Positions 43,075 to 61,795 of a stretch of DNA of 64,000 nt are shown one piece after another. The position numbers were made by a program, and so were the translations under genes. Below the pieces are notes generated by a model. That model was not told where the DNA came from and did not search any database. It worked only from the letters and a program-made list of their open reading frames with translations. Position 1 is the stretch's first letter; each line of letters starts with the position of its first letter. The stretch comes from Acidimicrobiia bacterium (GTDB taxonomy: Bacteria; Actinomycetota; Acidimicrobiia; IMCC26256; JBMOIW01), in contig JBMOIW010000001.1 of the NCBI GenBank assembly GCA_049317145.1, forward strand, positions 20,133 to 84,132, written 5' to 3'.

Positions 43075-43098
43075 CGAAGCCTCCTCACCGCGGGCGAA

Positions 43099-45060
43099 CT
43101 ACTCATCGTGTGCCGGTGCCGCCGAGTCGAGATATTTCGCTTTGATTCCCGCAACCACGTTGGGGTCCGCAAGCGTGGTCGTATCACCAAGGGCTTTGTC
43201 TTCGGCAACATCGCGCAAGAGCCGACGCATAATCTTGCCCGAACGGGTCTTGGGAAGTTCATCAGTGAACAAGATGGACTTGGGTTTCGCAATAGGCCCA
43301 ATACTCTGCGCGACATGGCTACGAAGTTCCTCGACCAGCGCGTCACTTGCCGTGGTTCCGGCGCGCAAGATAACGAACGCAGCGATGGCCTGACCGGTCA
43401 TTGCATCGGCCTTCCCGACAACTGCAGCTTCGGCAACCGCAGGATGCTCGACCAGTGCGGACTCGACTTCGGTCGTCGAGATGTTGTGCCCCGACACCAA
43501 CATGATGTCGTCGACGCGGCCCAGCAACCAGAAATATCCGTCGGCATCGCGCTTCGCACCGTCACCGGCAAAGTACTGCCCCGAAAAGCGCGACCAATAG
43601 GTATCGCGATAACGCTGCGGATCACCCCACACGCCGCGCAGCATGGAAGGCCACGGTTCGGTGAGCGTGAGGAATCCACCCCCCGGTACGCCAACGGGCG
43701 CACCAGCGTCATCAACCACGTTGGCGGAAACTCCGGGAAGGGGGAATGTTGCACTGCCCGGTTTGCATACGGTGGACCCCGGGAGCGGGCTGATCATGAT
43801 CGATCCCGTTTCGGTTTGCCACCACGTATCAACGACTGGGCAACGATTTCCGCCGATGTGTTCGGCGTACCAAATCCACGCCTCAGGGTTGATGGGTTCG
43901 CCCACGCTCCCGAGCAGCCGTAACGACGAAAGATCGTGACGCTCGGGATACTCGGCACCCCACTTCATGAAGGTACGAATGGCGGTCGGCGCGGTGTAGA
44001 GCGTGGTCACTCCGTACTTCTCGATGACTGCCCAGAATCGATCCTTGTCGGGATAGTCCGGTGTGCCCTCGTACAACACGACGGTGGCGCGGTTCGCTAA
44101 CGGTCCATACACCACGTACGAATGACCGGTGACCCAACCGCAGTCGGCGGTGCACCAATACACGTCGGTTTCGGGCCGATGATTGAACACGGCGCGAAAG
44201 GAAAAGGCGACCTGGGTCAGGTAACCGCCGGTGGTGTGCATGATGCCCTTGGGCTTCCCGGTGGTTCCGCTGGTGTACAGGATGTACAGCAAGTCCTCGG
44301 CGTCGCAGTCAACGGCCGGACGTTCGCTCGCCTGTGGTGGCACAAGGTCGTGCCACCACACGTCGCGGCCAACTTCCATCGCAACGTCGTTGTTCGTGCG
44401 CGCGACCACCAGTACGCGTTCAATCGACGTGGTCCCAGTGAGTGCGTCGTCGGCGATCGCTTTGAGCGGAACCACACTGCCGCGCCGCCACGCGCCGTCA
44501 CAGGTCACTAAAACTTTGGCGCCTGCGTCGTGAATCCGATCGCGCAACGCATCAGCCGAGAATCCACCAAACACCACGGAGTGCGCTGCGCCAAGGCGCG
44601 CGCAGGCAAGCATCGTGATCGGCAGCTCGGGCACCATACCCATGTAGATAGCGACGCGATCGCCGCGTTGTACTCCAAGTTCTGCGAGCGCATTCGCTGC
44701 GCGCGATACCTCCGCAAGAAGTTCCGCGTAGGTGATCCGACGCTCGTCGCCGGGCTCCCCTTCCCACAAGAACGCCACCTGTTCTCCGTGACCGGCCAGC
44801 ACATGGCGATCAAGACAGTTGTACGAAGCGTTCAGCCGCCCACCAGCGAACCACTGTGCAAACGGCGGTTCCCATCGCAACACCTCATCCCACGCGCGAC
44901 TCCAGTGCAACCCATGCGCTTGGTCTTCCCAGAATCGCAATCGATCGGCACCAGCATCACTGAACCACTGCGCGTCGCGCGTCGCGGCATCGGGATCAAA
45001 TCCCGTCGGTGGAGCAAACGTACGATCTTCGGCGAGTAACCCTTCGATGGTTTCCGACAT
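43099..45060 (-). CDS. acs: Acetyl-coenzyme A synthetase (AMP-forming)
   Basis: 653 aa with YTSGTTGKPKG, the GWVTGHSY context, and the C-terminal SGKIMRR. Confidence 0.95.
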   Translation of the reverse strand: MSETIEGLLAEDRTFAPPTGFDPDAATRDAQWFSDAGADRLRFWEDQAHGLHWSRAWDEVLRWEPPFAQWFAGGRLNASYNCLDRHVLAGHGEQVAFLWEGEPGDERRITYAELLAEVSRAANALAELGVQRGDRVAIYMGMVPELPITMLACARLGAAHSVVFGGFSADALRDRIHDAGAKVLVTCDGAWRRGSVVPLKAIADDALTGTTSIERVLVVARTNNDVAMEVGRDVWWHDLVPPQASERPAVDCDAEDLLYILYTSGTTGKPKGIMHTTGGYLTQVAFSFRAVFNHRPETDVYWCTADCGWVTGHSYVVYGPLANRATVVLYEGTPDYPDKDRFWAVIEKYGVTTLYTAPTAIRTFMKWGAEYPERHDLSSLRLLGSVGEPINPEAWIWYAEHIGGNRCPVVDTWWQTETGSIMISPLPGSTVCKPGSATFPLPGVSANVVDDAGAPVGVPGGGFLTLTEPWPSMLRGVWGDPQRYRDTYWSRFSGQYFAGDGAKRDADGYFWLLGRVDDIMLVSGHNISTTEVESALVEHPAVAEAAVVGKADAMTGQAIAAFVILRAGTTASDALVEELRSHVAQSIGPIAKPKSILFTDELPKTRSGKIMRRLLRDVAEDKALGDTTTLADPNVVAGIKAKYLDSAAPAHDE

Positions 45061-45121
45061 CTACGACCCCTCACTCGATGCGCCGTTGCACCCTACCCGG
45101 CACATCGCCGTACGTGAGCAG

Positions 45122-46318
45122 CTAGGCGCCGATGCCCGAAAAGGAAACATCGGGCGTGTGCGCCAGCAGCACCCGATAGGCCCCAAGGCCAGTTGGATCT
45201 GTGAGGGCGGCGGCTTCGTGGACTCGGCTGCGCGCCGCAATCGCGGCCAAGTCGCCGACAGATGCGTTCGCACGCCAATACTCCGCCGCTGCGTCAGCCA
45301 GTGTCTCGATTCCCAAGGCGCGCAACCACTCTGCTTGTCGGGGCGCTCCGGCGCTGCGCCACCCGTGTGCTTCTACCGCCGAGTTCCACGCTTCGAGCGG
45401 GACGTCAATCGTGATGTCCTGCGCGCCTGGTGTCTCCAACGGACCGGTGCCTTGGCAATGCGCGCGAAACGTTCGCAACCAAGCGTCCCCTCGATCGAGC
45501 AACGTTTTCGTGGACTCGGCGTAGTCAATGCACGCCACGATGCCGGAGCGAAGACACGCGTGGAGTTCCGACCACAGCGGACGCAACGCGGTGAGGACCG
45601 GAAGGCGCGCGCCGTCGGGGACCGACTGCGGATCGGGGAGCGCGTGGAACGCCGCATCCACCGACGACCAGTCAAGCGGCGTCGGCATCTCGATAAATCC
45701 AGCCCGGGCATCGAACCCGACTCGAATCTCGTTCCAGACACCATCACGCGTCGTTGCAATCCGGAATGGCAAGTTGTCGAGCAACTCATTCGCCAGCACA
45801 ACACCGCGGGCGTGGAGCGCCGGAATGGTATCGACGGCAGTCACGAGCGGCCCGCTCCTCGGAACACTCATGACGGAATGATCCTCATCGAGATCATCAC
45901 GCATCCCCGGGCCGAGTACGAGTTCGGGATCTTCGAGCGACAGCAGTTGCCGTTGCGCTTCGCGAAGGTGGGCGGAGCGCTCGACGAGTACGTAGCGCAA
46001 CGCCGTTGTGCACTGCGGGTTCGCTCGCAACACGCTGCGCGCCAGCACACCGCGCCCCGCACCGATTTCAACAACGAGATACGGATCAGGTTCACCCAGA
46101 ACGCGCCACCACGTATCGAGCGCCCGGGCAATACACGCCCCAAAACACTCGCCGGTCTCGGGGCTCGTCAGAAAGTCGCGACCCGCGCGACCTGCACCGC
46201 CACCACGGGCAAAGAATCCACTGTCCTGGTCGTACAGCGCAGCGGCGACGTACGCGTCGAACGGAATCGGGCCTTCGCGATGAATGCGGTCGCGCAGACG
46301 CGCCGCGAGGTCGCTCAC
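45122..46318 (-). CDS. SAM-dependent methyltransferase, MidA / NDUFAF7 family (COG1565, DUF185)
   Basis: It contains GGAGRAGRDFLTSPETGECFGACIARALDTWW and VVEIGAGRGVLARSVL (SAM motif I). The GTG at 46318 overlaps the nuoN stop (GTGA) and gives 398 aa. The track ORF extension to 46723 lies inside nuoN. Confidence 0.8.
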   Translation of the reverse strand: MSDLAARLRDRIHREGPIPFDAYVAAALYDQDSGFFARGGGAGRAGRDFLTSPETGECFGACIARALDTWWRVLGEPDPYLVVEIGAGRGVLARSVLRANPQCTTALRYVLVERSAHLREAQRQLLSLEDPELVLGPGMRDDLDEDHSVMSVPRSGPLVTAVDTIPALHARGVVLANELLDNLPFRIATTRDGVWNEIRVGFDARAGFIEMPTPLDWSSVDAAFHALPDPQSVPDGARLPVLTALRPLWSELHACLRSGIVACIDYAESTKTLLDRGDAWLRTFRAHCQGTGPLETPGAQDITIDVPLEAWNSAVEAHGWRSAGAPRQAEWLRALGIETLADAAAEYWRANASVGDLAAIAARSRVHEAAALTDPTGLGAYRVLLAHTPDVSFSGIGA

Positions 46319-47841
46319 AGCACGCGAGTGACGACTTGCGCAGCCATATCGCCCAGCTTGGCAACCGCTTGGGGATACACGCCGAAGACCACAGTTGCAA
46401 TCGCGCACACGCCGATGACGGCGGCGAGGGCAGGTGGGGTGTTGGTCCGCAAGGTTGGCCGCGTTTTCACCGCAACGCCACCGTTTCCGTCCGCTGTTTC
46501 GGCGGCCGCTGGCGCTTCGTCGAACCACATGCGGCGAGCAACTGCGGAGTAGTACACGAACGCGATAACGGTGTTGATGACCACGACCACACCCAGTACG
46601 TATGCCCACGGGGTGTCCGCCTCGACCACCGCGCGCAGGACCACAAACTTGGCAAACCATCCGGCCAACGGAGGAATCCCGGCAAGCGAGAACAAGAACA
46701 GCGACATCGCGATGGCCAGCCACGATCCGGTCTTCCCGAGTCCAGCGTAACTCGAGATCTCGCCCGAGCCGGTACGGCGCGCGACCGCCATAACCACCGC
46801 AAATGCTCCAAGGTTCATCACGGCATAGATCAGCAAGTACGTCACGACCGCACCGAACGCCGATCGCGAAGCGTTACCTTCTGCGGCAATTGCCAACGGC
46901 GCCAAGATGAATCCGCCCTGGGCAACCGACGAGTACGCCAGCATGCGCACGACGTTGGTTTGCCGAAGCGCCGTTAGGTTGCCAACGAACATCGAAGCCG
47001 CTGCCAGGAACCAAACCACCGGCTGCCACACTTCGCTCGCCGGAAAGAACCCGAAGTAGATTATGGTGAGCAGCGCTACGAACCCGCCCGCCTTTGAGGC
47101 AACCGACAGGAAGGCCGTGACGGGGGTGGGCGCACCTTCGTAGGTGTCGGGTGCCCAGAAGTGGAACGGCACCGCGCTCACCTTGAATGCAAAACCCACC
47201 AAGGTGAGGAACACTGCGACCAACGCCAACGGGGAAAGCGGCGTGCGCATCATCCACTCGGCGATCGACGAGAGCATTGTCGTTCCCGATAGACCGAAGA
47301 TGTACGACATACCGAACAGCATCACTGCCGAGGACATAACGCCGATGAGGTAGTACTTCATTGCGGCTTCGTTGCTCTTGGGATCGTGCTTTCGCCAGCC
47401 GGCAAGCACAAACGTCGGCAACGAGATCAACTCAAGGGCCACGAAGACCGAGATGAGATCACGGGCCGACGCCATGACCACCAGGCCCAGCACCGCAGCA
47501 ACCAGCAAGAACCAGTACTCGCCCTGGTAATAGTCGCCTTCGGTGATGTAGTCCGCCGACATCAATAACGCGAGATACGCAACGACAATAAAGAACCCTT
47601 TGAAGACCAGGGCATAGTTGTCGATAACGAAGGCGCCGTCGAAGAGCACTCGGGTCGGTTGATCCGAGAGCGCCAGCGAGAGCACCGGCACGAGCGCAGC
47701 AAGAACTACGAACGGCGCGAGACGCGCGGTCTGCCACCGTTGCCGTTCGGGCGCGAGCAGGTCGGCGACCAGCAGCACCACGAGACCGACCGTCAGAACG
47801 ATCTCGGGTGCAAGCGCGTGCAGGTCGACGGAAGGGTTCAT
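46315..47841 (-). CDS. nuoN: NADH-quinone oxidoreductase subunit N (11-gene operon)
   Basis: About 508-aa polytopic antiporter-like subunit. The ATG at 47841 overlaps the nuoM stop (ATGA). It is last in the nuo gene order. Confidence 0.9.
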   Translation of the reverse strand: MNPSVDLHALAPEIVLTVGLVVLLVADLLAPERQRWQTARLAPFVVLAALVPVLSLALSDQPTRVLFDGAFVIDNYALVFKGFFIVVAYLALLMSADYITEGDYYQGEYWFLLVAAVLGLVVMASARDLISVFVALELISLPTFVLAGWRKHDPKSNEAAMKYYLIGVMSSAVMLFGMSYIFGLSGTTMLSSIAEWMMRTPLSPLALVAVFLTLVGFAFKVSAVPFHFWAPDTYEGAPTPVTAFLSVASKAGGFVALLTIIYFGFFPASEVWQPVVWFLAAASMFVGNLTALRQTNVVRMLAYSSVAQGGFILAPLAIAAEGNASRSAFGAVVTYLLIYAVMNLGAFAVVMAVARRTGSGEISSYAGLGKTGSWLAIAMSLFLFSLAGIPPLAGWFAKFVVLRAVVEADTPWAYVLGVVVVINTVIAFVYYSAVARRMWFDEAPAAAETADGNGGVAVKTRPTLRTNTPPALAAVIGVCAIATVVFGVYPQAVAKLGDMAAQVVTRVL

Positions 47842-49418
47842 CGTGCCGATGCCTCCTGCGCACCACTCGGGCACTGCGGGACTGCGTCCGCCGGAACTTC
47901 AATGGCCTTCGCGATGCCTGCGGTCGACGAGCACACAGCCGGATTCGAAATATTGAACAACAGACTTGGAAACACACCGAAGACCACGATCAGCGCGAGG
48001 AGCGGAACCCACGCAATCCATTCCGGTCCGTGTACGTCGTGGATGTGCGCGTGCTCGAACTCGGCCTTCGGGTTTCCGAACGCAACACGCTGCAGCATCC
48101 AGAGTAGATACCCGGCGGCCAGCACTGTTCCGACCGCAGCAACGACCATGAATGTTCGGAATGCAGTTTGCGAAATGCCGGCCATGGGGTCGTAGGCCGC
48201 AAGAATCGCAGGGAACTCTCCCCAGAACCCGGCGAGTCCGGGCAACCCGAGCGAGGCCATCGCACAGAACCCGAGGATCCACCCAAGGTGCGGCGCTTGC
48301 TTCATGACGCCGCCGAGGCGACCCATGTCACGAGTTTCGTACCGCTCCGCGATCGATCCGGCGAGGAAAAAGAGCATGCCGGTGATGAGACCGTGAGCAA
48401 CCATTCCAAAAATTGCGGCGTTGATTCCGATCACCGTGAGCGTCGCGATGCCCAGCATGACAAAGCCCATGTGCGCAACTGACGAGAACGCGATGAGTCG
48501 CTTCATATCTTTTTGTGCAAGGCAACAGAGCGCTCCGTAGATGATGCCAATCACTGCAAGGAGCGCTATCCACGGTGCGTAGGCCTTGGCTGCATTGGGC
48601 AAGATCGGCAACGCGATTCGAATAAAGCCGAAAGTTCCGAGCTTCAGCAAGACCGCTGCCAGGATGACGGAGCCTACGGTCGGTGCTTCCGTGTGGGCGT
48701 CGGGCAACCAGGTGTGGAACGGGAACATCGGCACCTTGATTGCGAACCCAAGCGCCAAACCACCGAAGATCAACAACTCCGCCATGTGCGAGAGGCCGAC
48801 GCCGTGCTTTGCGACCAACGTCGGAATGTCGAACGTATTGAACTGCCAGTAGAGCGCCAAGAAACCGATGAGCATGAGCGCCGAACCGAACAGCGTGAAC
48901 AAGAAGAACTTGATCGACGCGTATTTGCGGTTGGGTCCACCCCAGACGCCGATCATGAAGAACATCGGCAACAACACGATCTCGAAGAAGATGAAGAACA
49001 AGATGAGGTCTTGGGCTACGAAGGTCCCGTTCATCCCGACCTCGAGCAACAAGATCAGCCCAAGAAATGCTTTCGGATTGTGCGGCTCGGGGAAGTGGTT
49101 CCACGAGTAGATGATCGCCAAAATCGTGATGAACATCGAGAGGATGAGCAACGGCAGCGCGATCCCATCGACACCGAGGTGGAATCGGCTGTTGATGACC
49201 GGGATCCACTCTTTGTCGACGTGGAACTGCAATGCGCTCGACGAGTAGTTGAACCGGAACAGCAGCGCGATCCCAACACCGAACGTGATGAGCGTGCTGA
49301 TCAGCGCGACTGCCTTGGTACCCGTCTCGTCCGCTTTCGGCCACAGCATGACCGCGACAAAACCGAGCAACGGCAAGAACACCGCCAGCGGAAGTGCCCA
49401 GTGATCGAACCAGTTCAT
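47838..49418 (-). CDS. nuoM: NADH-quinone oxidoreductase subunit M (11-gene operon)
   Basis: 526 aa with the antiporter-like motif PMFPFHTWLPDAHTEAPT. Confidence 0.92.
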   Translation of the reverse strand: MNWFDHWALPLAVFLPLLGFVAVMLWPKADETGTKAVALISTLITFGVGIALLFRFNYSSSALQFHVDKEWIPVINSRFHLGVDGIALPLLILSMFITILAIIYSWNHFPEPHNPKAFLGLILLLEVGMNGTFVAQDLILFFIFFEIVLLPMFFMIGVWGGPNRKYASIKFFLFTLFGSALMLIGFLALYWQFNTFDIPTLVAKHGVGLSHMAELLIFGGLALGFAIKVPMFPFHTWLPDAHTEAPTVGSVILAAVLLKLGTFGFIRIALPILPNAAKAYAPWIALLAVIGIIYGALCCLAQKDMKRLIAFSSVAHMGFVMLGIATLTVIGINAAIFGMVAHGLITGMLFFLAGSIAERYETRDMGRLGGVMKQAPHLGWILGFCAMASLGLPGLAGFWGEFPAILAAYDPMAGISQTAFRTFMVVAAVGTVLAAGYLLWMLQRVAFGNPKAEFEHAHIHDVHGPEWIAWVPLLALIVVFGVFPSLLFNISNPAVCSSTAGIAKAIEVPADAVPQCPSGAQEASAR

Positions 49419-49433
49419 TCGGAGATCCCCTCG

Positions 49434-51473
49434 CTATCCGTACAGCGCCACTGCCAAGCTGATGAGCCCGACAGCAAAGAACAACATGAGTGCGTACCAC
49501 TGCACTCGTCCGGTTTGCAGGCGGCGCAGCACGCCACCAAATCCACCCGCCCCCGTGGCCAGGCCATTCACCACACCATCCACGCCTTCTTGATCCACCA
49601 CGTCGTACGCGAACCGACCGAGGGCAACGGAAGCCTTGCCCACACCGTTTGGTACTGCATCGATGACGTTTTGGTTGATCCAGTACGACAACCGAGCGAT
49701 CGGGCCCTTGATCCCGCCCACAATGACTCCGGTGTACAGCGCATCGAGGTAGTACTTGTTCTCGAGGAATGTGTACCCGGCTCGAGCGACCGCATTGCGC
49801 TGCGTGAGCCCATGCGGACCCAAGTTGCGCCAGTAGTAGAGGTACATCAGCCCGATCGCCGTTGCGCCTACGACCAATGCCACTGCGGGCAGCCAGAGCT
49901 CGAAGTGCGGGTGCACTAATTCGGGGAACGCTGCGACCATTTTGCCGTTAAGGTCGACTTCGCTTAAGGGCTCGATCCAGTCACCGAACTTCTCGAAGTG
50001 AATGAAGGTCGCCTGCAACCAACCAGCAAAGACCGAGAAGAACGCAAGGATCCAAAGCGGGATCGTTATGGCCTTCTCCGACTCGTGCGGGTGGTGGTGT
50101 CCACGGTATTCACCGAAGAACGTGAGATACACACACCGCGTCATGTAGGCCGCAGTGAGAAATGCGCCGACGAGACCCACGATCATGAACATCTCGTAGC
50201 CACCTTGTCCCGCGGTGGCCAGGATTTCGTCTTTGGAAAAGAACCCGGCGAACGGGAAGATCCCGATCAACGCTGCAGTACCGATCATGAATGTCCAGAA
50301 CGTCTGCGGCATGTATTTGCGCAACCCGCCCATATCTTTTTTCATGTCGAAACTGTGATGCGAACCGGAGTGGCTCACCGACCCAGCGCCAAGGAACAGC
50401 AAGGCCTTAAAGAACGCGTGGGTGAAGAGATGGAACAGTGCCGGCAACCACGCGCCCACACCCATCGCGAGCACCATGTAGCCGAGCTGACTGATAGTGC
50501 TGTAGGCCAACACCTTTTTGATGTCGGACTGCACGAACGCAAGGAGCGCACCAATCACGATGGTGATGGCACCGATGATCGCGATGGCGTTCATCCCGCC
50601 GTTTTCGATGTTGAAACCTGACCAAAACACGCCATAGATCCGAGCGAGCAAGTACACACCAGCAACCACCATGGTGGCGGCATGAATTAGCGCGGAAACC
50701 GGAGTCGGACCGGCCATGGCGTCCGGCAACCAGGTGTGCAGCGGGAACTGACCACTCTTGCCAATCACGCCGATAAACAATGCGGACGCGCACACCAGCA
50801 CGAGGGTATGACTTGCTTCCGGGGACAGTGCAGCCGCGTTGACCTGTTGAATCCCGAAGGAGAACGTGCCGGTGACCGCTTGCACCAAGAAGCCAGTCAG
50901 AATAACCCCGATCAACAGCCCGATGTCCCCGGTGCGCGTCGTGAAAAACGCCTTGAGCGCTGCGTTCGTGTTGGGCTGTTCTTCCCACCAGTGTCCGATC
51001 AGCATGAACGAGCACAACCCGACGAGTTCCCAGCCGACCATGAGCATCAAGGTGTTGTCGGCCACCACCAGCAACAGCATCGAGGCAGTGAACAAACTCA
51101 ATGCTGCGTAGTAGTGCGTGTAGCGGACATCACCTTTCATGTACGCCGTGGAGTAGACGTGCACCAGCAACGAGATCAGGGTGACGACAAAGAGCATCAT
51201 CACGGCCAGACCGTCGATCTGAATGCCGACGCTGAGCTTGATGATTCCGGAGGTGAACCACGTCGTGGAGTGGACAATCGCCGACGGGTGCGCCTCCGAG
51301 GACTCCACCCGTTGGATCCACGCGACAGCGGTCCAACACGCCAGGACAAAGGAGCTACCGACAGCAAGAATGCCGAGCTCGCTGCCCTTCTTGGGCATGC
51401 GCTTTCCGAAGAACAAGATAAGCGCGTACGAAACGGCCGGGATGACGGGAATGACCCACGCGTAGTCGAGCAT
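49434..51473 (-). CDS. nuoL: NADH-quinone oxidoreductase subunit L (11-gene operon)
   Basis: 679 aa containing GQFPLHTWLPDAMAGPTPVSALIHAATMV, plus a long C-terminal extension typical of NuoL. Confidence 0.93.
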   Translation of the reverse strand: MLDYAWVIPVIPAVSYALILFFGKRMPKKGSELGILAVGSSFVLACWTAVAWIQRVESSEAHPSAIVHSTTWFTSGIIKLSVGIQIDGLAVMMLFVVTLISLLVHVYSTAYMKGDVRYTHYYAALSLFTASMLLLVVADNTLMLMVGWELVGLCSFMLIGHWWEEQPNTNAALKAFFTTRTGDIGLLIGVILTGFLVQAVTGTFSFGIQQVNAAALSPEASHTLVLVCASALFIGVIGKSGQFPLHTWLPDAMAGPTPVSALIHAATMVVAGVYLLARIYGVFWSGFNIENGGMNAIAIIGAITIVIGALLAFVQSDIKKVLAYSTISQLGYMVLAMGVGAWLPALFHLFTHAFFKALLFLGAGSVSHSGSHHSFDMKKDMGGLRKYMPQTFWTFMIGTAALIGIFPFAGFFSKDEILATAGQGGYEMFMIVGLVGAFLTAAYMTRCVYLTFFGEYRGHHHPHESEKAITIPLWILAFFSVFAGWLQATFIHFEKFGDWIEPLSEVDLNGKMVAAFPELVHPHFELWLPAVALVVGATAIGLMYLYYWRNLGPHGLTQRNAVARAGYTFLENKYYLDALYTGVIVGGIKGPIARLSYWINQNVIDAVPNGVGKASVALGRFAYDVVDQEGVDGVVNGLATGAGGFGGVLRRLQTGRVQWYALMLFFAVGLISLAVALYG

Positions 51474-51476
51474 GCG

Positions 51477-51776
51477 TCAGCCCTTCAGTTGGTCGGCCCG
51501 ACCAAGGTCGGGGGTACGGAGGTTGCGGTACAGCAGCAACACGATGGCAAGACCAACCCCGACTTCGGCAGCCGCGATCGTGATGACAAAGAGCGCGAAG
51601 ACCTGTCCGGCTACCGCGTTGTTGTATGCCGAGAATGCGATCAAGTTGAGGTTGACCGCGTTCAGCATCAGCTCGATGCTGATGAGCACAAGCACACCAT
51701 TACGGCGGGCAAGCACGCCATAGATGCCACAGCAGAACAAAAACGCCGCCAGGATCAGGAGGTAATTGAGATACAT
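51477..51776 (-). CDS. nuoK: NADH-quinone oxidoreductase subunit K (11-gene operon)
   Basis: 99 aa with three transmembrane helices, containing [17 protein letters not shown]. Confidence 0.93.
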
Positions 51777-52279
51777 CAGTCTCTCCGGGCCAGCACGACG
51801 GCTCCTACCAACGCAGCGAGGAGAAGGATCGAAACTACTTCGAACGGCAGTACGTAGCTGCGAAAGACACTGCCGCCCACGGTGGCGGCGTTACCGACGT
51901 TGAGCAACGAATCGTTGAGTGCAATCTTCTTGGCTCCAAACGCATGAATCGTGAGCGCAGAAAAGATTGCGAACACGAAGACGCCCGCCAAGAAGGCCGG
52001 CCAGCGCCGCGGGTAGTCGACGTCCCCCGCAGCCCGCATCGGTGCACGCGTGAGCATGATTCCGAACAAAAAGAGCACCACGACCGCGCCGATATAGACA
52101 ATGACCTGCACCCAAGCGACGAACTCAGCGGCAAGCAGCAAAAACTGGGCCGCTGAACCGGCAAGCACCGCCACGAGGTACAGCGCGGCGTGCACAACGT
52201 TCTGCGAGCGCACCACACCAATGGCAGCGCCGGCCATGGCGACGGCAATGATCCAGAAGGCGACCTGTTGCGCGATCAC
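51776..52279 (-). CDS. nuoJ: NADH-quinone oxidoreductase subunit J (11-gene operon)
   Basis: 167-aa membrane protein containing [40 protein letters not shown]. Confidence 0.9.
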
Positions 52280-52759
52280 CTACTTTTTTCCTTTCACTTC
52301 GGCCCCCACTTCGAGGGGTTCCGGTACCGGGACGGTTTCCATCCACTCGCCTAAACGATCCATGTTGTGGAGCAGGTCCGCGATACGTGGCTCGGAATAC
52401 TCGTATTCGGGGCTCCAGAACAGCGCATCGAATGGGCAGACCTCGACACAGATACCGCAATACATGCACAGGGCGTAGTCGATGTCGAAACGATCGAGAA
52501 TGCTGACCGTGCGCTCCCGTCCACCTTCGCGACGGGGCGGACGCTTTTCTTTGTGCCCCTCGATGTAGATGCACCAGTCGGGACAACTACGTGAACACAA
52601 CATGCACGCCGTACAGTTTTCTTCTTTGAGCGCGATAACGCCGCGCGCACGCGTCGGCGGCGCTTCTTTCTCGTGCGGATATTGCACGGTGACTGCGCCT
52701 TTCAGCATCGTTTTAAACGTGACGCCGAGGCCACCGATGAGTCCGGGAAGCTTTGCCAT
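52280..52759 (-). CDS. nuoI: NADH-quinone oxidoreductase subunit I (11-gene operon)
   Basis: The internal ATG at 52759 gives 159 aa with two 4Fe-4S motifs ([12 protein letters not shown] and [12 protein letters not shown]). The track extension overlaps nuoH. Confidence 0.92.
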
Positions 52760-53784
52760 CAGACGAGCACCTTGAACAAGCCGGTCACCAAGATATTGAT
52801 GAGCGCGAGCGGGATAAGCACTTTCCAGGCCAACGCTTGGAGTTGGTCTTCCCGAAGCCGTGGATAGGTGAAGCGCACCCAGAAGATCAGGAACGCCACC
52901 AACATCAACTTCGCAAACAACACAATCGGTCCGAGCCAGTTGGCCAAGTCGCCGTGCACCCACGGTACAGACCAACCGCCCAGGTAGAGGGTCGCCGCAA
53001 TAGCAGCAAACGCGAACGCGGTTCCGAATTCGCCGATGAAGAAGAACAGGAATCGAAAACCGGTGTACTCCACCATGTAGCCGGCGACGAGCTCGCTTTC
53101 GGCGACTGGCATGTCGAACGGAGTCTGCGTGAGTTCGGCCTGGGCCGCGATCAAAAAGATCAAGAAGCCAAGGATCTGCGTGAGGATGAACGGGTTACCG
53201 ATCCCGCCCCAACCGAAAATGCTTCCGTTTTGCTGCGCCAGCACGATCTGTTGCAAGTTCAGCGAACCCGCCTGGATCGCGACAGCGACGACCGCCAGCA
53301 GGAGCGGAAGTTCGTAGGCAATGAGCTGCGCCGCGGCGCGGATCGAGCCGAGGAGCGCGAACTTGTTGGCACTTGCCCAGCCCGCCATCAAGACGCCGAT
53401 GACGGAGAGGCTCGACACGGCCAACGCATAGAAAATGCCAACGTCAAGATTCGCGACAACGAGGTCCGGGCCCACCGGAATGACGACAAAGATCAGGAAC
53501 GTCGAAATCACCACGACGGCCGGTGCAAGCGCAAACACGCGCCGATCTGCCTTGGCCGGGATGATGTCTTCTTTTTGGACGAACTTCAGTCCGTCGCCAA
53601 TGAGCTGGTACCAACCGTGGAATCCACCCGGGTCCATCGGACCGAGTCGGCTCTGCATGTGGCTCATCATCTTGAGCAAAAAGACGTAGCCGAGGATGAG
53701 CGCGCCGGCCGGAATGATCGCCAGGATCACGACCGTCTTAATACCGAGCAGCGCGCCCCACGGAAGACTGGTTGCCAAGATCAT
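52759..53784 (-). CDS. nuoH: NADH-quinone oxidoreductase subunit H (11-gene operon)
   Basis: 341 aa containing [24 protein letters not shown] and [23 protein letters not shown]. Confidence 0.93.
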
Positions 53785-54956
53785 CGGTCAATGTCTCCGA
53801 GGATGAAGTACAGCGAACCGAGGATCGTAATGACGTCGGGCACGTACGCACCGCGCAACAACCACGGCAGAATTGACACGTTGCTAAAGGATGCCGAGCG
53901 GATCTTGACGCGGAACGGACCAGTGCCGCCCTTGGAGATCACGTAGTACCCCATTTGGCCGAGCGGGTTTTCGGTCTCGACCCAAACCTCGCCTTCGGGG
54001 ACTTTGATGATGCGCGGCACCTTTGCCATCACCGGGCCAGCCGGCAACTTATCGAGCAGTTGCAGCACCATCTTGGCCGACTCGCGCGTTTCTTCGAGAC
54101 GAACGATATAGCGCGCAAACGAGTCGCCGTCCGTGTGCGTGTGCACCTTGAAGTCAAGATCGCGATAGGCGAGGTACGGCTTGCCGTCACGACGGAGATC
54201 CCAATCGACACCCGACGCACGCAAGTTCGAGCCGGACACGCCGTACTCGGCGCCCAAGTCGCCCGGGATGATTCCGATGGACTTGGTGCGCGTCGCAAAG
54301 ATCTCGTTGCCAACGACCAATTTCTCGAAGGTGTCGCAGGATTCGAACACCACCTTCATCGCTTCGCGCGTCTCGGCAATCCAGCCCCACGGCAGGTCTT
54401 CCTTGAGTCCACCGATTCGGTTGAAGTTGGGGTGGAACCGACCACCGGTGGCAGCCTCGATGAGGTTCAAGACGTATTCGCGGTCGCGGAACCCGTAGAA
54501 GGCTGGTGTAATTGCGCCGATCTGGAGTCCCATTTCGCCGAGGAACAACAAGAACGTGGCAATGCGCGAGAGCTCCGTGAGAATCGTGCGGATGTACACC
54601 GCACGATCCGGCGCTTCGATCCCCATGAGTTGTTCGGCAGCATCGATAAACGGGACTTCGTTGGCGAAACTCGACAGCCAGTCGATGCGATTGATCAACG
54701 TCGTGACTTGCGGGTACGTGCGGAACTCGGTGAGTTTCTCGTAGCCGCGGTGCATGTACCCGATGACTGGATCGGCAGAAATGACGCGCTCACCGTCGAG
54801 GCGCACTACCAGGCGCAACGTTCCGTGCGTCGCCGGGTGTTGTGGCCCAAGGTTCAGAATCATGTCGCCGGTGTCGAGCTCGACGTTGATTTGTGCGTCG
54901 GCCAAGTGACGCAGTGCCCCTGCAGGGATTTCGAACTGTTCGCCAGTCGTCGTCAC
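53781..54956 (-). CDS. nuoD: NADH-quinone oxidoreductase subunit D (11-gene operon)
   Basis: 391 aa containing LNLGPQHPATHGTLRLVVRLDGE and GYMHRGYEKL. Its stop overlaps the nuoH start by 4 nt, so no nuoE/F/G lies between. Confidence 0.94.
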   Translation of the reverse strand: MTTTGEQFEIPAGALRHLADAQINVELDTGDMILNLGPQHPATHGTLRLVVRLDGERVISADPVIGYMHRGYEKLTEFRTYPQVTTLINRIDWLSSFANEVPFIDAAEQLMGIEAPDRAVYIRTILTELSRIATFLLFLGEMGLQIGAITPAFYGFRDREYVLNLIEAATGGRFHPNFNRIGGLKEDLPWGWIAETREAMKVVFESCDTFEKLVVGNEIFATRTKSIGIIPGDLGAEYGVSGSNLRASGVDWDLRRDGKPYLAYRDLDFKVHTHTDGDSFARYIVRLEETRESAKMVLQLLDKLPAGPVMAKVPRIIKVPEGEVWVETENPLGQMGYYVISKGGTGPFRVKIRSASFSNVSILPWLLRGAYVPDVITILGSLYFILGDIDR

Positions 54957-55645
54957 TCGTCACCACCTGCTTCGCCGGGCATCGGCTCCACGTCAACCAG
55001 TCCCGGCCAGGGCTTGACCACGCGAGCGAGCAACGGGAAGTCCTTACGCAACGGATGTCCTTCGAATTCGCCGGGCAGGTACAGATGCCGCAACGCCGGG
55101 TGCCCAGAAAACACGATTCCGTACATCTCCCAGGTTTCGCGCTCGTGCCAATCGGCGCCGGGGTACACGCTCACCCACGATGCAATCGTGGGTTGGGTCT
55201 CGCTCACGTCGGCTTTGAGCGTGACGCCCCAATGCTCCGAAGTGGACTCAACGTGGGCGAATACTTGAAAGCGCCCGGCAGAACCCGCAGCACCAAAGGT
55301 CATCTCGGTTGGCTGCGCGGGCGTCGAGGTGTCGCCTTCGTCGTCTGACTCTTTGGGCGCCGGCATCCAGTCAATGCCGCTCACAAAACTCAAGTAGTCG
55401 CATTCGAGCGCGTGACGCGCGACGTTGGCGACATCCGCCCATCGGTCCGCGGCAACGCGCACACATAAGGTGCCGAATACGTCGGCATGTTCGAGGATTG
55501 CGTCGGCGCCGAGCTCGGCTTCGAGACGCGCCAAGAGGATCGCCTCGGTATCGTCGAGTGCAACGCCCACCGGTGCGTTTTCGGTTGCGGGAGTCACCTC
55601 ATCATCAGCCAACGACGATCGGCTCCCCGCGCCAACGACGAGCAA
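54953..55645 (-). CDS. nuoC: NADH-quinone oxidoreductase subunit C (11-gene operon)
   Basis: It contains NuoC blocks ([35 protein letters not shown]). The start is uncertain: the track TTG at 55645 overlaps nuoB by 41 nt. Confidence 0.88.
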
Positions 55646-56132
55646 GCCCGTCGTTACCGATACCTTCGTTTTGGATGCGCTCCTGCAACAGCGTCACGCC
55701 TTGGATCAAGGCTTCAGGACGCGGCGGACATCCGGGGATGTACACATCAACGGGCAAGATCTGATCGATACCTTTGGTGACCGAGTACGAGTCCCAGTAC
55801 GGGCCGCCGCAGTTCGCGCAGCTCCCCATACTGATGACGTACTTCGGGTCCGGCATCTGCTCGTACAACCGCAGAATTGCCGGCGCCATTTTGTCGGTCA
55901 CGGTGCCCGAAACCACCATCAGGTCGGCTTGGCGCGGGCTGGCCGGGAACGGGATGACTCCGATCCGCATCATGTCGTATCGCGGGCTGGCCAACGCTGC
56001 GCCCATTTCGATTGCGCAACATGCCAATCCCCACTGGAACATCCACAGCGAGTACTTGCGGCTGTAGTTGAGGAGCCACGTCACCGGCTTGACCGGCTTT
56101 TTGGAGAGGAGACCTTTTTCGACTAGGCCCAT
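55605..56132 (-). CDS. nuoB: NADH-quinone oxidoreductase subunit B (11-gene operon)
   Basis: The internal ATG at 56132 gives 175 aa with the N2-cluster cysteines ([27 protein letters not shown]). Confidence 0.93.
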
Positions 56133-56554
56133 CGCAGCACACCTTTCCGCCACGCGTACACCAAGCCCAGCGCCAGCAGCGCAACAAAGACTGTCATGCT
56201 GACGAGACCGTACGTACCGAGAGCCGGAACCCCATAAGCGTTTGTGCCAAGGATGATGGCCCACGGCAAGATGAACACGGCTTCAACGTCAAAGATCACA
56301 AAGAGCAGTGCGTAGACGTAGTACCGAACGTTCGACTGCCCGAAACTCCCGACCGGGTCAGAGCCCGACTCGTACGCAATGTACTTCTGTGCTTCGGGGT
56401 GGTTCGGACGCAACAAGCTACCGACGCCCAACATAATGACGACGAGCGCAATCGCCGCAGCCATAAAGACTGCTACCGCGACGTAGTTGCGGTAGTACTC
56501 AGTAAGCGCCGACGTTGCGAGTGCAGTCGGGGCCGTCCAATCGTTGAGGGTCAC
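56123..56554 (-). CDS. nuoA: NADH-quinone oxidoreductase subunit A (11-gene operon)
   Basis: 143 aa with a GTG start preceded by GGGAGAG. It contains YESGSDPVG and [15 protein letters not shown]. Confidence 0.9.
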
Positions 56555-56584
56555 GAACGCTCTCCCTGCGTTACAAGCGGGCGC

Positions 56585-56633: not shown

Positions 56634-58166
56634 TCATGAGAACTTCGCGATCGCGTCGGCAGCGAGATGCACCAGCCACTGCGGGAAAACCCCCACGGCA
56701 AGGACCAGGCCTGCGCAGACAACCATAACTGCGCCGGTCGTCCAACGCACGAGCACGGGAGGCTCTTCCAGGGTGACGTCGTGCTCGTCTTCGGACATGT
56801 ACATCTGCACCACGATGCGCAGGTAATAAAAAGCGGCGACGGCTGCGGCCAACATCCCGACGATTGCAAGCCAATAGATCTGCGTGTTCACTGCCGCAGC
56901 AAATACCCCGAACTTGGCGATAAAGCCGGCCGTGAAGGGGACACCGGCTTGCGCCAGCACGAAGAACGCCAAGAAGCCGGCAACGATTGGATGACGGCGT
57001 GCCAGCCCGCGGTACTGGTCGAGTCCACTGCGCTCATCGGTGCCGCTGACCCAAGAAATTGTGGCGAACGCGCCAATGATCATCACGGTATAAATCGCCA
57101 GATAGACCAGCGCCGCTTGGAGCCCTTGGCTGGTCCCGGTCGACACCCCGATCAAGATGTATCCCGCGTTCGCAATCGAGGAGTACGCCAGGATCCGCTT
57201 GACATCGGATTGCACCAGCGCCGCGATAGATCCGACCGCCAAGGACAACACCGCAAGCACCCACACCACGGGTTGCCACACCGGAGTCGAGGTCTGGAAC
57301 GCAATGGCAAGGAGACGGATCAACGCTGCAAACCCAGCGACCTTGGTGGCCGACGCCATAAATGCTGTGACCGGAGTCGGCGCGCCTTGGTACACGTCCG
57401 GTGTCCACATGTGGAACGGTGCCGCCGCCACCTTGAACGCAAAACCCACCACGATCAGCAACGCACCGATCAAGAACAGCGTCGGCGCGTGTCCGAGGGG
57501 GTTCGCAAAGTACGTCGCGATGGAAGGACCCTCTGAAGTGACGATCCGCGTCGTGCCGGTTGTGCCGTAGACGAGCGCCGCACCGTAGAGAAACACCGCC
57601 GATGCAAACGCACCCAAAACGAAATACTTCAGGCCTGCCTCTTGTGATTCGCGCCGGCGGCGATCGAATGCTGCCAGCACGTACAGCGGAATCGAAAGCA
57701 ATTCGAGCGCCACGAACACGACGAGCAGATCGTTGGCGGTCGTCATGGCAATCATGCCTGCACCCGACAGCAACATCAGCGCGAGGTACTCGCTCGTGGC
57801 GACACCGGGCCGCAACAAGAACGCCGTAGAAAGCAACAACACCAACAGCAGCGCAACGCATACGAGCACGCCGAGATACACCGCAAACCGATCGACGACA
57901 ACAGTGCCGGAAAATGCGATGTAGCTGCCGCCTTTGTTCGGCGACGTTTCTTGCCACTGCACAACGAGACCGCCAGCCGCGCCGAACACCGATGCGATTG
58001 CGATCCACATTGCAACCGGGTTGGCCCATGATTCACCGTGCGACATCGATCGCAACAGCACGATGACCGTAGCGCCGAGCACCAGCATGACCACCGGAAG
58101 AATTGCCGGCAGATAGTGCAGCGAACCGGTGGCGATCGGGTCTTGAATCGCGAGCAGCATCGTCAT
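56634..58166 (-). CDS. nuoN: NADH-quinone oxidoreductase subunit N (upstream operon)
   Basis: 510-aa antiporter-like subunit containing AAPFHMWTPDVYQGAPTPVTAF. It is last in the H-I-J-K-L-M-N order. Confidence 0.9.
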   Translation of the reverse strand: MTMLLAIQDPIATGSLHYLPAILPVVMLVLGATVIVLLRSMSHGESWANPVAMWIAIASVFGAAGGLVVQWQETSPNKGGSYIAFSGTVVVDRFAVYLGVLVCVALLLVLLLSTAFLLRPGVATSEYLALMLLSGAGMIAMTTANDLLVVFVALELLSIPLYVLAAFDRRRRESQEAGLKYFVLGAFASAVFLYGAALVYGTTGTTRIVTSEGPSIATYFANPLGHAPTLFLIGALLIVVGFAFKVAAAPFHMWTPDVYQGAPTPVTAFMASATKVAGFAALIRLLAIAFQTSTPVWQPVVWVLAVLSLAVGSIAALVQSDVKRILAYSSIANAGYILIGVSTGTSQGLQAALVYLAIYTVMIIGAFATISWVSGTDERSGLDQYRGLARRHPIVAGFLAFFVLAQAGVPFTAGFIAKFGVFAAAVNTQIYWLAIVGMLAAAVAAFYYLRIVVQMYMSEDEHDVTLEEPPVLVRWTTGAVMVVCAGLVLAVGVFPQWLVHLAADAIAKFS

Positions 58167-59722
58167 CGCGTTCCCTTACTCAGCGGGCAATCGTCCGGGG
58201 TCTCGGCACCCGCGCGTTCGGGTTGGACGTAGTCCGAATTCGCTTCCACGTGGGCAACAACACAAGCCGCACTGGGTTCGATGCGCGACAACATCGGCTT
58301 CGGATACACCCCGAGAAAGAAGCTCAACGCAAGCAACGGCACAACACACGCCAGCTCGCGCCAATTGATTTCGGGCATCGCTGCGGTTGCTTCGTCGGGC
58401 ACCCCGGTAAATGAGCGTTGAAAGGCCCACAACAAATACAGCGCCGCAAGAATCACGCCGACCGACGAAACGATGGCGTACGGGCGATGCACCAGGAAGG
58501 TTCCGAGCAACGCGAGGAACTCGCCCACGAATCCCGAGAAGCCCGGCAAACCGATGGACGCAAATACGGCGATCAAGAACAGGCCACCGAGCAGCGGTGT
58601 TGCTTTCCATATTCCGCGAAACGCGGAAATCAAGCGAGTGTGGCGACGGTCGTAGAGCATGCCGACCAATAAGAACAGTGCTCCGGTGGTGAGGCCGTGA
58701 CTGACCATTGTGAACACGCCACCTTCGATACCGATGACGGTGATGGCGAAGATGCCCAGGACCACGAAACCCAGGTGGGCAATCGAGGAGTACGCAATCA
58801 AACGCTTGAGGTCCGGTTGCATTGTCGCAACTACGGCGCCGTAGATGATGCCAATCGTTGCAAGCACGAGGAACACCCAAGCGAACCGCGCCGATGCGCC
58901 CGGGAACAACCCCAACGAGAAGCGCAAGAATCCGTACGTTCCCATCTTCAGCAGCACGCCGGCCAGGATGACCGAGCCGGCGGTCGGTGCTTCGGTGTGC
59001 GCATCCGGAAGCCACGTGTGTAGCGGGAACAGCGGGACTTTGACAGCGAACGCCACCCCGAACGCGAAGAACAACCATGCCGCAGTTGCAGTCGCTAACC
59101 CATTCGGTGCCCACTTCGCAAGCGCCACGTAATCAAAGGTCAGCGTGCCGGTCGCCGATTGATGCAAGAACGCAACCGCCAGGATTCCGACGAACAAGAA
59201 CGCCGATCCCGCCATCGTGAAGACAAAGAACTTCAGCGCCGCGTAGACCCGTCGACCATGGCCCCATTTGCCGATGATGAAATACATCGGGACCAACACG
59301 ATCTCGAAGAACAAGAAGAACACAATGAGATCAAGCCCAAGGAACACGCCCATGACGGCGCTTTCCAAGATCAGCATCCACACGATGAACGCTTTGGGGG
59401 ATTCAATCTTGTGGGAAGCGAGCAGCCCGATGGGAAAGAGCAATCCGGTAAGTACCACCATGAACAAGCTCAGGCCATCCACCCCAAGCTGCCAGCGAAT
59501 CCCCAGTGCGGGAATCCAGGATGCCGACTCGGTGAACTGGAACGCGCCGGAGTGCGGATTGAATTGCCACAACAGTGCGAACGACAAGCCGGCCGCCGCG
59601 ACAGTGAACGCGTACCCCAACGCCCGAACTACATCGGGTCGACGGTTCGGCATGCACAGCGCGAGCACTGCGCCGGCTGCGGGCGTGAGGATGAGTGCCG
59701 TGAGAATCGGGAAGCCGTTCAT
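58163..59722 (-). CDS. nuoM: NADH-quinone oxidoreductase subunit M (upstream operon)
   Basis: The internal ATG at 59722 (ATGA overlap with the nuoL stop) gives 519 aa containing PLFPLHTWLPDAHTEAPTAGSV. Confidence 0.92.
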   Translation of the reverse strand: MNGFPILTALILTPAAGAVLALCMPNRRPDVVRALGYAFTVAAAGLSFALLWQFNPHSGAFQFTESASWIPALGIRWQLGVDGLSLFMVVLTGLLFPIGLLASHKIESPKAFIVWMLILESAVMGVFLGLDLIVFFLFFEIVLVPMYFIIGKWGHGRRVYAALKFFVFTMAGSAFLFVGILAVAFLHQSATGTLTFDYVALAKWAPNGLATATAAWLFFAFGVAFAVKVPLFPLHTWLPDAHTEAPTAGSVILAGVLLKMGTYGFLRFSLGLFPGASARFAWVFLVLATIGIIYGAVVATMQPDLKRLIAYSSIAHLGFVVLGIFAITVIGIEGGVFTMVSHGLTTGALFLLVGMLYDRRHTRLISAFRGIWKATPLLGGLFLIAVFASIGLPGFSGFVGEFLALLGTFLVHRPYAIVSSVGVILAALYLLWAFQRSFTGVPDEATAAMPEINWRELACVVPLLALSFFLGVYPKPMLSRIEPSAACVVAHVEANSDYVQPERAGAETPDDCPLSKGTR

Positions 59723-61770
59723 TGTCCGAACCGCTCCGAAAGATCGCCGAAGCGCACCACGAGATAGCTGACGATCACCACGACCCCGATCATGATCCAC
59801 AGCGCGTACTGACGAAGACGACCGGTCTGTACGCGGCGAAGTCCTTCGCCGCCGGTACGGAATAACCAACCGACGCCGTTCACGGCGCCGTCGATGATGC
59901 GCTGATCGAATACGTCAGCGGTCCACGTTGCAACTGCGCGCAACGGTCCGCCGACGACGCGCGCAACGGCGTCATCGATGTACCACGCGTGTGCGAGGAA
60001 TCGCGTGGGCCCATGACCGAGCGCTTTCGGGAGCGGATCGCCGTCCGGTGTCACCAGGCCCTTGCGATACAACTTGGTGGCCATTGCGATGCCGGTTGCG
60101 GCGATCACCACTGCGACCACGGCCAGACCGATGAGCACCGCCGGAGCTTCGTGCGGAATCTCCGGTGCGCCCGGGTAGGCAAAGACCGGTTCAAGCCACT
60201 CGGTCAAGAACTCCAGACCATGGAACGGCAATGCCAACACTCCGCCGATGATCGCAAGGACACCGAGGACCAACACGGGAATCCACATCGTGGGTGGTGT
60301 CTCGTGCGGATCGTGCGCCAGCGCCGGCGGGTGCGGCGGATCGTCGGGACCAACCGTAAATGTTGCGGTCGGATCATGCGGGTGCGGGTGCGCGTCCGCT
60401 GGCGCACGGAACCGCTCGTTTCCGAAGAACACCAACAATGTTTCGCGCGACATGTAGAACGCAGTGAGCAGCGCGGCGAGCAGCCCCACCCCCCAAACGA
60501 GGTACCCCTCCCAGCCGCCAACGGCAAAGGCTTTGCCGAGGATTTCGTCTTTCGACCAAAACCCCGAGAACGGGGGGACGCCGGCGATGGCGAGCCACGC
60601 CACGATGAATGCAAACGATGTGATGGGCAGGTACTTGCGCATCCCACCCATCGTGCGGATGTCCTGGTTTTCGGCACTCTCGTGAATTACCGAACCCGAA
60701 CCAAGGAACAACGTCGCCTTGAAGAACGCGTGCGTAATGACATGGAAGATCGCAGCGGCGAATGCACCAACACCCAACGCGAGGAACATGAACCCAAGCT
60801 GGCTTACGGTGGAATACGCAAGGACGCGCTTGATGTCGTTTTGCACCAACGCTGCGGTTGCGGCGTACAACGCAGTACCAGCACCGACGAGCGCAATGAC
60901 CGTCCCGGCAGTACCACCACTTTGCGACACGATGGGCGCCGCCCGTGCGATGAGATACACGCCTGCGGTCACCATCGTGGCGGCGTGAATCAGTGCCGAC
61001 ACCGGGGTCGGACCTTCCATGGCGTCCGGCAACCAGATGTGCATTGGGAACTGTGCGCTCTTTCCGGCCGCACCCAAGAACAGCAACAACGCAATTGCCG
61101 TTGCAGTACCGGCAGCAAGCGTGCCTGCAGCTTGGTTGACCTGCACGTAATCAAGGCTGCCGATTGTTCCGAAGATCAGGAACATCGCCAACATGACGCC
61201 GAAGTCACCAACGCGGTTGGTCACAAACGCTTTCTTGCCTCCAACTGCGGCTGCTGTGCGTTCAAACCAAAACGAAATGAGGAGGTACGAGCACAAGCCC
61301 ACACCTTCCCAGCCGAGGAACGTAGTGAGGTAGCTCGAGCCGAGCACGAGCACCAGCATCGACGCGGCGAACAAGTTGAGATACGCGAAGAATCGGCTGA
61401 AGCGGGGATCGCCGTGCATGTACCCGATGGAGTACAGGTGGATGAGGGTGGCAATCCCGCTGATGAACAACACAAACGCCATTGAGAGCGGGTCAACGAG
61501 CGTCCCGAACGACACCTCAAAGCGTCCCGCCGCGATCCAAGTGAAGAGCGTGTGGACATTACCCAGTCGTTCTTCGGCCGGCAGGCTCCGCAGCGAAAAG
61601 AACATTGCAACGGCGTATACGAACGACAGCCCCATCATCAGGGTTGCGAGAACGCCGGCCCACGGTTCACGCATACGCTTGCCGATCAAGAGCAGGATCA
61701 CTGCGCCCGCGAACGGAAGCGCCGGAACAATCCACGCGCCATTGAGCACGTCATGCGCGCTCATACCCAT
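59719..61770 (-). CDS. nuoL: NADH-quinone oxidoreductase subunit L (upstream operon)
   Basis: 683 aa containing AQFPMHIWLPDAMEGPTPVSALIHAATMV. Confidence 0.93.
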   Translation of the reverse strand: MGMSAHDVLNGAWIVPALPFAGAVILLLIGKRMREPWAGVLATLMMGLSFVYAVAMFFSLRSLPAEERLGNVHTLFTWIAAGRFEVSFGTLVDPLSMAFVLFISGIATLIHLYSIGYMHGDPRFSRFFAYLNLFAASMLVLVLGSSYLTTFLGWEGVGLCSYLLISFWFERTAAAVGGKKAFVTNRVGDFGVMLAMFLIFGTIGSLDYVQVNQAAGTLAAGTATAIALLLFLGAAGKSAQFPMHIWLPDAMEGPTPVSALIHAATMVTAGVYLIARAAPIVSQSGGTAGTVIALVGAGTALYAATAALVQNDIKRVLAYSTVSQLGFMFLALGVGAFAAAIFHVITHAFFKATLFLGSGSVIHESAENQDIRTMGGMRKYLPITSFAFIVAWLAIAGVPPFSGFWSKDEILGKAFAVGGWEGYLVWGVGLLAALLTAFYMSRETLLVFFGNERFRAPADAHPHPHDPTATFTVGPDDPPHPPALAHDPHETPPTMWIPVLVLGVLAIIGGVLALPFHGLEFLTEWLEPVFAYPGAPEIPHEAPAVLIGLAVVAVVIAATGIAMATKLYRKGLVTPDGDPLPKALGHGPTRFLAHAWYIDDAVARVVGGPLRAVATWTADVFDQRIIDGAVNGVGWLFRTGGEGLRRVQTGRLRQYALWIMIGVVVIVSYLVVRFGDLSERFGQ

Positions 61771-61795
61771 CCCCCCGTGGAATTCACTGTGTTCC

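Follow-up and report, generated by a model that had tools for sequence, protein, structure and literature searches.

Does a methyltransferase gene that lies directly behind a set of complex I genes act on the enzyme those genes encode? This question is raised by a 64,000-nucleotide stretch (the window) of an Acidimicrobiia metagenome-assembled genome (MAG; GenBank assembly GCA_049317145.1, 94-kb contig JBMOIW010000001.1, positions 20,133 to 84,132), in which a gene for an S-adenosylmethionine (SAM)-dependent methyltransferase of the MidA/NDUFAF7 family (PF02636, COG1565) follows an operon of 11 nuo genes. In human cells, NDUFAF7 is the enzyme that dimethylates Arg85 of NDUFS2 (PMC3829151). The corresponding Arg85 of the bovine 49-kDa subunit carries symmetric dimethylation, as does Arg65 of Nqo4 in Paracoccus, while Thermus thermophilus has Thr at this position (PMC3750175). 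On balance, the evidence set out below favors the methyltransferase being a paralogue-specific arginine methyltransferase or assembly (maturation) factor for NuoD2, the NuoD subunit of the 11-subunit enzyme, and this reading is held with some, though far from full, confidence.

Family and fold of the methyltransferase

The product translated from the window is identical to the 398-aa protein in the NCBI annotation of the source MAG (P0001; 100% identity and coverage). It matched the Pfam family PF02636 (Methyltransf_28) with an E value of 7.2e−35 and 121.1 bits (gathering cutoff, 23.3), residues 62 to 324 aligning with profile positions 1 to 247 of 249, whereas NCBIfam models gave no match. 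Membership in PF02636 is far beyond chance and is established, whereas strict orthology and activity are putative. A phmmer search of all PDB sequences returned matches only to the DUF185 protein of Rhodopseudomonas palustris (1zkd), the COG1565 proteins of Burkholderia (4f3n/4g67), and MidA of Dictyostelium (5ztz).

The AlphaFold2 model, built from 22 clade members, was confident (predicted local distance difference test score, 86.5; predicted template-modeling score, 0.87). Its top match by Foldseek against PDB was Dictyostelium MidA (5zu0; E value, 9e−25; template-modeling [TM] score, 0.76), followed by 4g67/4f3n (TM, 0.72 to 0.76) and 1zkd (TM, 0.73 to 0.81). Beyond these MidA-type structures, the matches fell sharply to generic class I methyltransferases (TM, ∼0.3). 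Judged from the model and these matches, the protein has the MidA-type fold, a class I Rossmann core with a family-specific extra domain. The preliminary description of this locus had assigned the gene to the COG1565/DUF185 type, an assignment that could have failed in a hidden Markov model search and was instead upheld by the profile, PDB sequence, and fold searches. The two peptide blocks quoted there in support, DFLTSPETGECFG and VVEIGAGRGVLARSVL, were located at residues 48 to 60 and 82 to 97, respectively.

The protein carries SAM-binding motif I (VEIGAGRG, residues 83 to 90), an acidic VE (112 to 113), DFLTSPE (48 to 54), and ANELLDNL (176 to 183). Motifs in common with alpha-proteobacterial homologues are GR..DF.T.PE (43 to 54), G.G.G (86 to 90), the same VE, ANE..D.L (176 to 183), DY (265 to 266), and PG..D.T (297 to 303), and the SAM-binding and family motifs are invariant both against these homologues (31 to 32% identity) and within the clade. 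It could be argued that the protein supports the Q module as a chaperone or assembly factor without any need for methylation, its catalytic function being vestigial, given that operon position by itself fits a purely structural assembly role equally. However, clade members of 41 to 54% identity retain every SAM-binding and family-invariant motif, as do the alpha-proteobacterial proteins. Their retention argues for selection on catalysis, which makes a noncatalytic role very improbable.

Conserved position behind nuoN2

Pfam searches (for nuoA2 and nuoK2, of their L081 orthologues) gave the order nuoA2-B2-C2-D2-H2-I2-J2-K2-L2-M2-N2 upstream of the methyltransferase gene, all on one strand and without nuoE, nuoF, or nuoG. 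This confirms the EFG-less nuo operon reported in the preliminary description and places the encoded enzyme in the 11-subunit (“ancestral-type”) complex I-like class; the nuoD2 and nuoH2 reading frames of the window share 4 bp. The same description had the GTG start of the 398-aa gene overlapping the nuoN stop, without giving the strand (minus). Coordinates and a direct reading of the junction agree, the methyltransferase GTG (46318-46316) overlapping the nuoN2 TGA (46317-46315) in the context ...GTGCT GTGA GCGAC. No Shine-Dalgarno-like purine run was found in the 20 nt 5′ of this GTG. A promoter and terminator scan of positions 42800 to 57000 identified no promoter-like site and 20 terminator-like sites, which is at chance level (15.2 expected by shuffling); none of the latter lay at or near the nuoN2/methyltransferase junction or in the gap between the methyltransferase gene and acs. 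The scan showed no obvious signal and is uninformative beyond that.

Linkage was measured by tblastn with window proteins against loci from a one-genome-per-species (GTDB) scan that returned 574 relatives. The best 80 loci were kept, all of which look like Acidimicrobiia-type MAGs, with methyltransferase identities of 41 to 54%; searches were confined to the closest 80 to 120 relatives. The MAG labels “Burkholderiales,” “Sphingomonadales,” “Bifidobacteriaceae,” “Rubrobacter,” and “Acidobacteria” occurring among them were set aside as indications of spread beyond Acidimicrobiia, because the oddly labeled loci share gene order and similar identities, making mis-binning likelier.

In 68 of the 71 loci with at least 1.5 kb of upstream DNA, each from a different species, nuoN2 ended ≤400 bp 5′ of the methyltransferase gene on the same strand; the two tblastn matches lay a median of 62 bp apart. 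nuoC2, D2, H2, K2, L2, M2, and N2 were all present in 47 of 48 loci having 10 kb upstream. The gap between nuoD2 and nuoH2 (49 loci) was 27 bp at the median and never more than 341 bp, leaving no room there for nuoE, nuoF, and nuoG in any locus. The linkage could have been unique to this genome; instead, the neighborhood survey that had been proposed found nuo linkage recurring in ∼70 species-level Acidimicrobiia-type genomes.

The gene had also been described as a translationally coupled twelfth member of the operon. Adjacency held across the relatives and the GTGA overlap held in this genome, but coupling was not conserved, as estimated stop-to-start gaps between nuoN2 and the methyltransferase gene ranged from −4 to ∼150 bp. 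The conserved feature is adjacency rather than the exact GTGA overlap or translational coupling. Strand, a junction without signals, and adjacency in the related loci place the gene as the twelfth cistron of the operon, with which it would be co-transcribed.

The methyltransferase gene has a second neighbor, acs, which in the window begins 61 bp downstream, after an interval free of terminator-like sites, and which follows in the same orientation in 61 of 64 loci. Since all loci come from one class-level lineage, the position after nuoN2 may be inherited synteny, with the gene either tied to acs or a passenger. Such an explanation is very improbable. acs lay within 400 bp in only 34 of the 64 loci, with gaps of up to 4.6 kb containing inserted genes or DNA, so of the two linkages of the methyltransferase gene, that to nuoN2 is the tighter. 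In addition, the nuo linkage persists at methyltransferase identities down to 41%, and “Candidatus Actinomarinales” keeps the order nuo then NDUFAF7 despite other downstream genes (htpX and pspE).

NuoD2 Arg70 and its counterpart in NuoD1

NuoD2 Arg70 (codon 54749-54747; context, ...DPVIGYMH-R70-GYEK...) corresponds in the alignment to Arg85, the dimethylated residue of the bovine 49-kDa subunit, and is followed by Gly71, giving NuoD2 the Arg-then-Gly arrangement of the substrate class. The alignment of GYMHRGYEK was gapless with both mitochondrial HIGLLH-R-GTEK and T. thermophilus Nqo4 HIGYLH-T-GFEK. Among readable NuoD2 orthologues, GYMHRGYEK was kept in 49 of 49. NuoD1 of the adjacent 14-gene operon instead reads GYLHTGMEK, with Thr at the target position, in three relatives (L082, L084, and L085) reached via NuoL1 homologues, the window's own NuoD1 lying beyond base 64000. 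The NuoD alignment suggested in the preliminary description therefore gave an invariant Arg in NuoD2 and Thr in NuoD1 of these relatives, and as far as the sequences tell, the target arginine is available only in the NuoD paralogue whose gene shares an operon with the methyltransferase gene.

NuoB2 keeps the tandem-Cys motif of cluster N2 (CCAIEM, SCANCGG, and GCPP); thus, the cluster beside the putative methyl-Arg should be present. At the position of the quinone-headgroup Tyr, NuoD2 has Trp93 (54680-54678, minus strand; NRIDWLS), and Trp was found in 49/49 orthologues. Tyr occupies this position in T. thermophilus (RMDYLH), in mitochondria (RLDYVS), and in NuoD1 of relatives. Trp93 suggests that the 11-subunit enzyme may have an altered quinone or acceptor site.

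If the gene product does modify NuoD2, a single transcript would carry the eleven genes of the EFG-less nuoABCDHIJKLMN operon and, as twelfth and final cistron, the methyltransferase gene. In this genome, translation would probably terminate at the nuoN2 stop codon and re-initiate within the overlapping GTGA. During Q-module assembly, the methyltransferase would bind newly made NuoD2 and methylate Arg70 in the loop GYMH-R-GYEK beside the NuoB2 N2 cluster, as NDUFAF7 does on NDUFS2; the type of methylation would presumably be the same, and a role in assembly or at N2 could follow. Because NuoD1 of the 14-gene complex I carries Thr at the target position, the factor would be specific for the second, 11-subunit enzyme.

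The enzyme might also serve the 11-subunit complex through a substrate other than NuoD2 Arg70. The target could be a different residue, a different subunit, or a small molecule that this complex uses, for example a quinone or a cofactor. The quinone pocket of NuoD2 is unusual (Trp93 for Tyr), so the complex may have special requirements, and the literature gave no proven substrate for any bacterial PF02636 member; the low sequence identity with MidA and the bacterial homologues and an insertion peculiar to the clade, both detailed below, point the same way. Even so, a different substrate is regarded as unlikely. The sole characterized activity in the family is protein arginine methylation of a NuoD orthologue (PMC3829151), the target Arg occurs in every NuoD2 read but not in NuoD1 of relatives, and the full-length fold match is MidA rather than a small-molecule methyltransferase.

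Several observations weigh against modification of NuoD2 by this methyltransferase. Identity to characterized or structurally solved relatives is only 22 to 32%, and the Acidimicrobiia clade carries an insertion of ∼25 to 40 residues (∼127 to 170) absent from alpha-proteobacterial homologues, so substrate specificity could differ. For every member of the clade, the support is computational. An Arg at the target position need not mean methylation, as Arg249 of Escherichia coli NuoCD is unmodified (PMC3750175). The NuoD1 Thr comes from three relatives, two of them from one sample, and not from the window's own NuoD1. acs is likewise a conserved downstream neighbor, and three loci break the linkage to nuo: in L076 (8896-11176) the methyltransferase gene follows an FKBP isomerase gene and ilvC, in L050 there is no nuoN2 upstream, and in L002 a gap of ∼1.1 kb separates it from nuoN2. 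PF02636 genes away from nuo (L076) or spaced from nuoN2 (L002) could be relocated or paralogous copies. Finally, the Rhodopseudomonas homologue lies in lgt-MT-pgeF (MT, methyltransferase gene), far from nuo; operon position is therefore no trait of the whole PF02636 family, and embedding in the nuo operon appears to be lineage specific.

The observation made in the preliminary description is confirmed, and its interpretation is supported as far as computation reaches. The locus extends an existing hypothesis and implies no new mechanism. If NuoD2 Arg70 is methylated by this enzyme, the sole known protein-arginine methylation of complex I would gain a Gram-positive example, in an enzyme lacking the NADH module. 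Such an example would support the view that PF02636 methyltransferases have been functionally tied to the NuoD/N2 site since ancient times. Each cell would also hold a natural internal control, with two complex I paralogues of which one has the target Arg and one does not, and the pair could help to separate a role of methyl-Arg in N2 tuning from one in assembly. The compact 12-gene unit could be moved into E. coli, where a gain-of-modification test is possible because the NuoCD Arg is naturally unmodified (PMC3750175).

A broader picture is possible and is offered tentatively. In it, Arg dimethylation of the NuoD loop by N2 would reach beyond the mitochondrial and alpha-proteobacterial lineage. 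In Acidimicrobiia it would serve specifically to mature an 11-subunit complex I-like enzyme with no N module and with Trp at its quinone site, the factor being encoded in that enzyme's own operon. The 14-subunit complex I, with Thr, would not be modifiable there, and the methyltransferase would act as a paralogue-specific mark or assembly checkpoint keeping two co-expressed Q modules apart. The tie of this methyltransferase family to complex I would then predate, or have arisen independently of, both mitochondria and the NADH module.

Genomic surroundings and comparison with known systems

The features of the locus are collected in Table 1. The canonical nuo operon 1 ends 79 bp (56555-56633) before nuoA2 on the same strand, and this tandem layout, a 14-gene operon followed by an 11-gene operon, recurs in five further contigs (L081 to L085). 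With both operons on one strand, a single transcription unit of as many as 26 genes is conceivable. The two nuo operons of L082 and L084 are separated by a patatin gene in the opposite orientation. A single 1,043-aa call in L082 (12016-15147) spans nuoM1 and nuoN1, which are separate elsewhere, and could reflect either a gene fusion or an artifact of assembly or frameshift. On the plus strand of the window, a 345-aa open reading frame (ORF; 42886-43923) without a Pfam match is convergent with acs, and weak, short tblastn matches to it (33 to 52% identity over ∼60 aa) recurred at the corresponding place of many related loci.

Table 1. Coordinates of the methyltransferase gene, the nuo genes, and acs in the window (L081 is a related contig)
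Feature	Position	Strand	Basis and remarks
MidA/NDUFAF7-family (PF02636, COG1565) SAM-dependent methyltransferase	45122..46318	minus	398 aa + stop, GTG start; translation, Pfam, AlphaFold2, Foldseek, motifs
GTGA start/stop overlap, nuoN2/methyltransferase	46315..46318	minus	Sequence read directly
nuoN2	46315..47874	minus	PF00361, 238 bits
nuoM2	47838..49418	minus	PF00361 and PF01059
nuoL2	49434..51473	minus	PF00361, PF00662, PF01010
nuoK2	51477..51776	minus	99-aa ORF; L081 orthologue matches PF00420
nuoJ2	51776..52279	minus	PF00499
nuoI2, start inferred (longest ORF to 52975)	52280..52759	minus	Fer4 families; ATG two codons inside 161-aa frame; 161-aa L081 orthologue
nuoH2	52759..53784	minus	PF00146, 334 bits
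nuoD2, proposed substrate	53781..54956	minus	PF00346; gapless alignment; codons confirmed
nuoC2, start uncertain (longest ORF to 55645)	54953..55597	minus	PF00329; GTG candidate start
nuoB2, 175 aa	55605..56132	minus	PF01058; sequence; 175-aa orthologues
nuoA2, opens 11-gene operon	56123..56554	minus	143-aa ORF; L081 orthologue matches PF00507
Upstream 14-gene nuo operon tail: nuoH1 (partial), I1, J1, K1, L1, M1, N1	56634..64000	minus	Pfam; full A-N including E, F, G in relatives
acs (acetate-CoA ligase)	43099..45060	minus	NCBIfam NF001208, 985 bits

The novelty claimed in the preliminary description was overstated. The modification has been shown on Arg65 of Paracoccus Nqo4, and the layout appears in a 2021 preprint (Bulzu et al., bioRxiv 10.1101/2021.02.01.429150) and in automated annotation, the JGI annotation already naming these proteins NDUFAF7. 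A bacterial origin of MidA is also published, a proteobacterial one having been proposed by Shahul Hameed (2018), as reported in a passage of a review (PMC9006661). Novelty is limited accordingly. What is new is the breadth of the linkage, across ∼70 species-level genomes and down to 41% methyltransferase identity, together with the target Arg in NuoD2, its replacement in NuoD1, and the Trp in place of the quinone-site Tyr in NuoD2. The complex I phylogenomics of Spero et al. (2015) leaves methyltransferases unmentioned.

Mitochondrial NDUFAF7 and Dictyostelium MidA (PDB 5ztz, 5zu0, and 5zzw) belong to the same PF02636 family and share the same overall fold (TM, 0.76). The SAM-binding, DFxTxPE, and ANExxDxL motifs are kept, and NuoD2 carries the aligned Arg in an HRGxEK loop. 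In contrast, identity is ∼22%, and the gene described here is bacterial and lies inside the operon of its presumed substrate, its activity being predicted from sequence. The presumed substrate complex also differs in being without NuoEFG and in having Trp for the quinone-site Tyr.

The alpha- and beta-proteobacterial COG1565/DUF185 proteins (R. palustris 1zkd and Burkholderia thailandensis 4f3n/4g67) are of the same family (TM, 0.72 to 0.81), and the Rhodopseudomonas/Bradyrhizobium-type homologues, at 31 to 32% identity, have the invariant motifs in common with the methyltransferase. Paracoccus denitrificans, with symmetric dimethyl-Arg65 on Nqo4, provides the bacterial complex I known to bear the modification (PMC3750175). 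The proteobacterial systems differ in having a single 14-subunit complex I, in the lgt-MT-pgeF setting of the Rhodopseudomonas gene, and in lacking the insertion at ∼127 to 170. In the Rhodopseudomonas locus (L086:7141-9910), the PF02636 homologue overlaps both lgt upstream and a Cu-oxidase_4 (PgeF/YfiH-type) gene downstream; the three genes have the look of a conserved unit of their own, with no relation to nuo.

The nuo operon of Rhodobacter capsulatus likewise contains a SAM-methyltransferase-like gene, urf7, described in silico only (PMC9036352). It was considered as an earlier instance of the arrangement and ruled out, as its 257-aa product belongs to another family, PF13578 (Methyltransf_24), and not to PF02636.

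The closest parallel in layout is that of “Ca. Actinomarinales,” in which an 11-subunit nuo operon (nuoABCDHIJKLMN) is followed by a PF02636 gene annotated as NDUFAF7 (K18164/PF02636), downstream of heliorhodopsin, with a 14-subunit operon reported close by (bioRxiv 10.1101/2021.02.01.429150). The target Arg and the paralogue difference are undiscussed in that preprint, and the mSphere article that followed (PMC8612252) does not contain the passage. The surroundings of the two loci differ: in “Ca. Actinomarinales,” heliorhodopsin and afuABC lie upstream and htpX, pspE, and an adenosine kinase gene downstream, whereas in the window the 14-gene nuo operon lies 79 bp upstream of nuoA2 and acs lies downstream.

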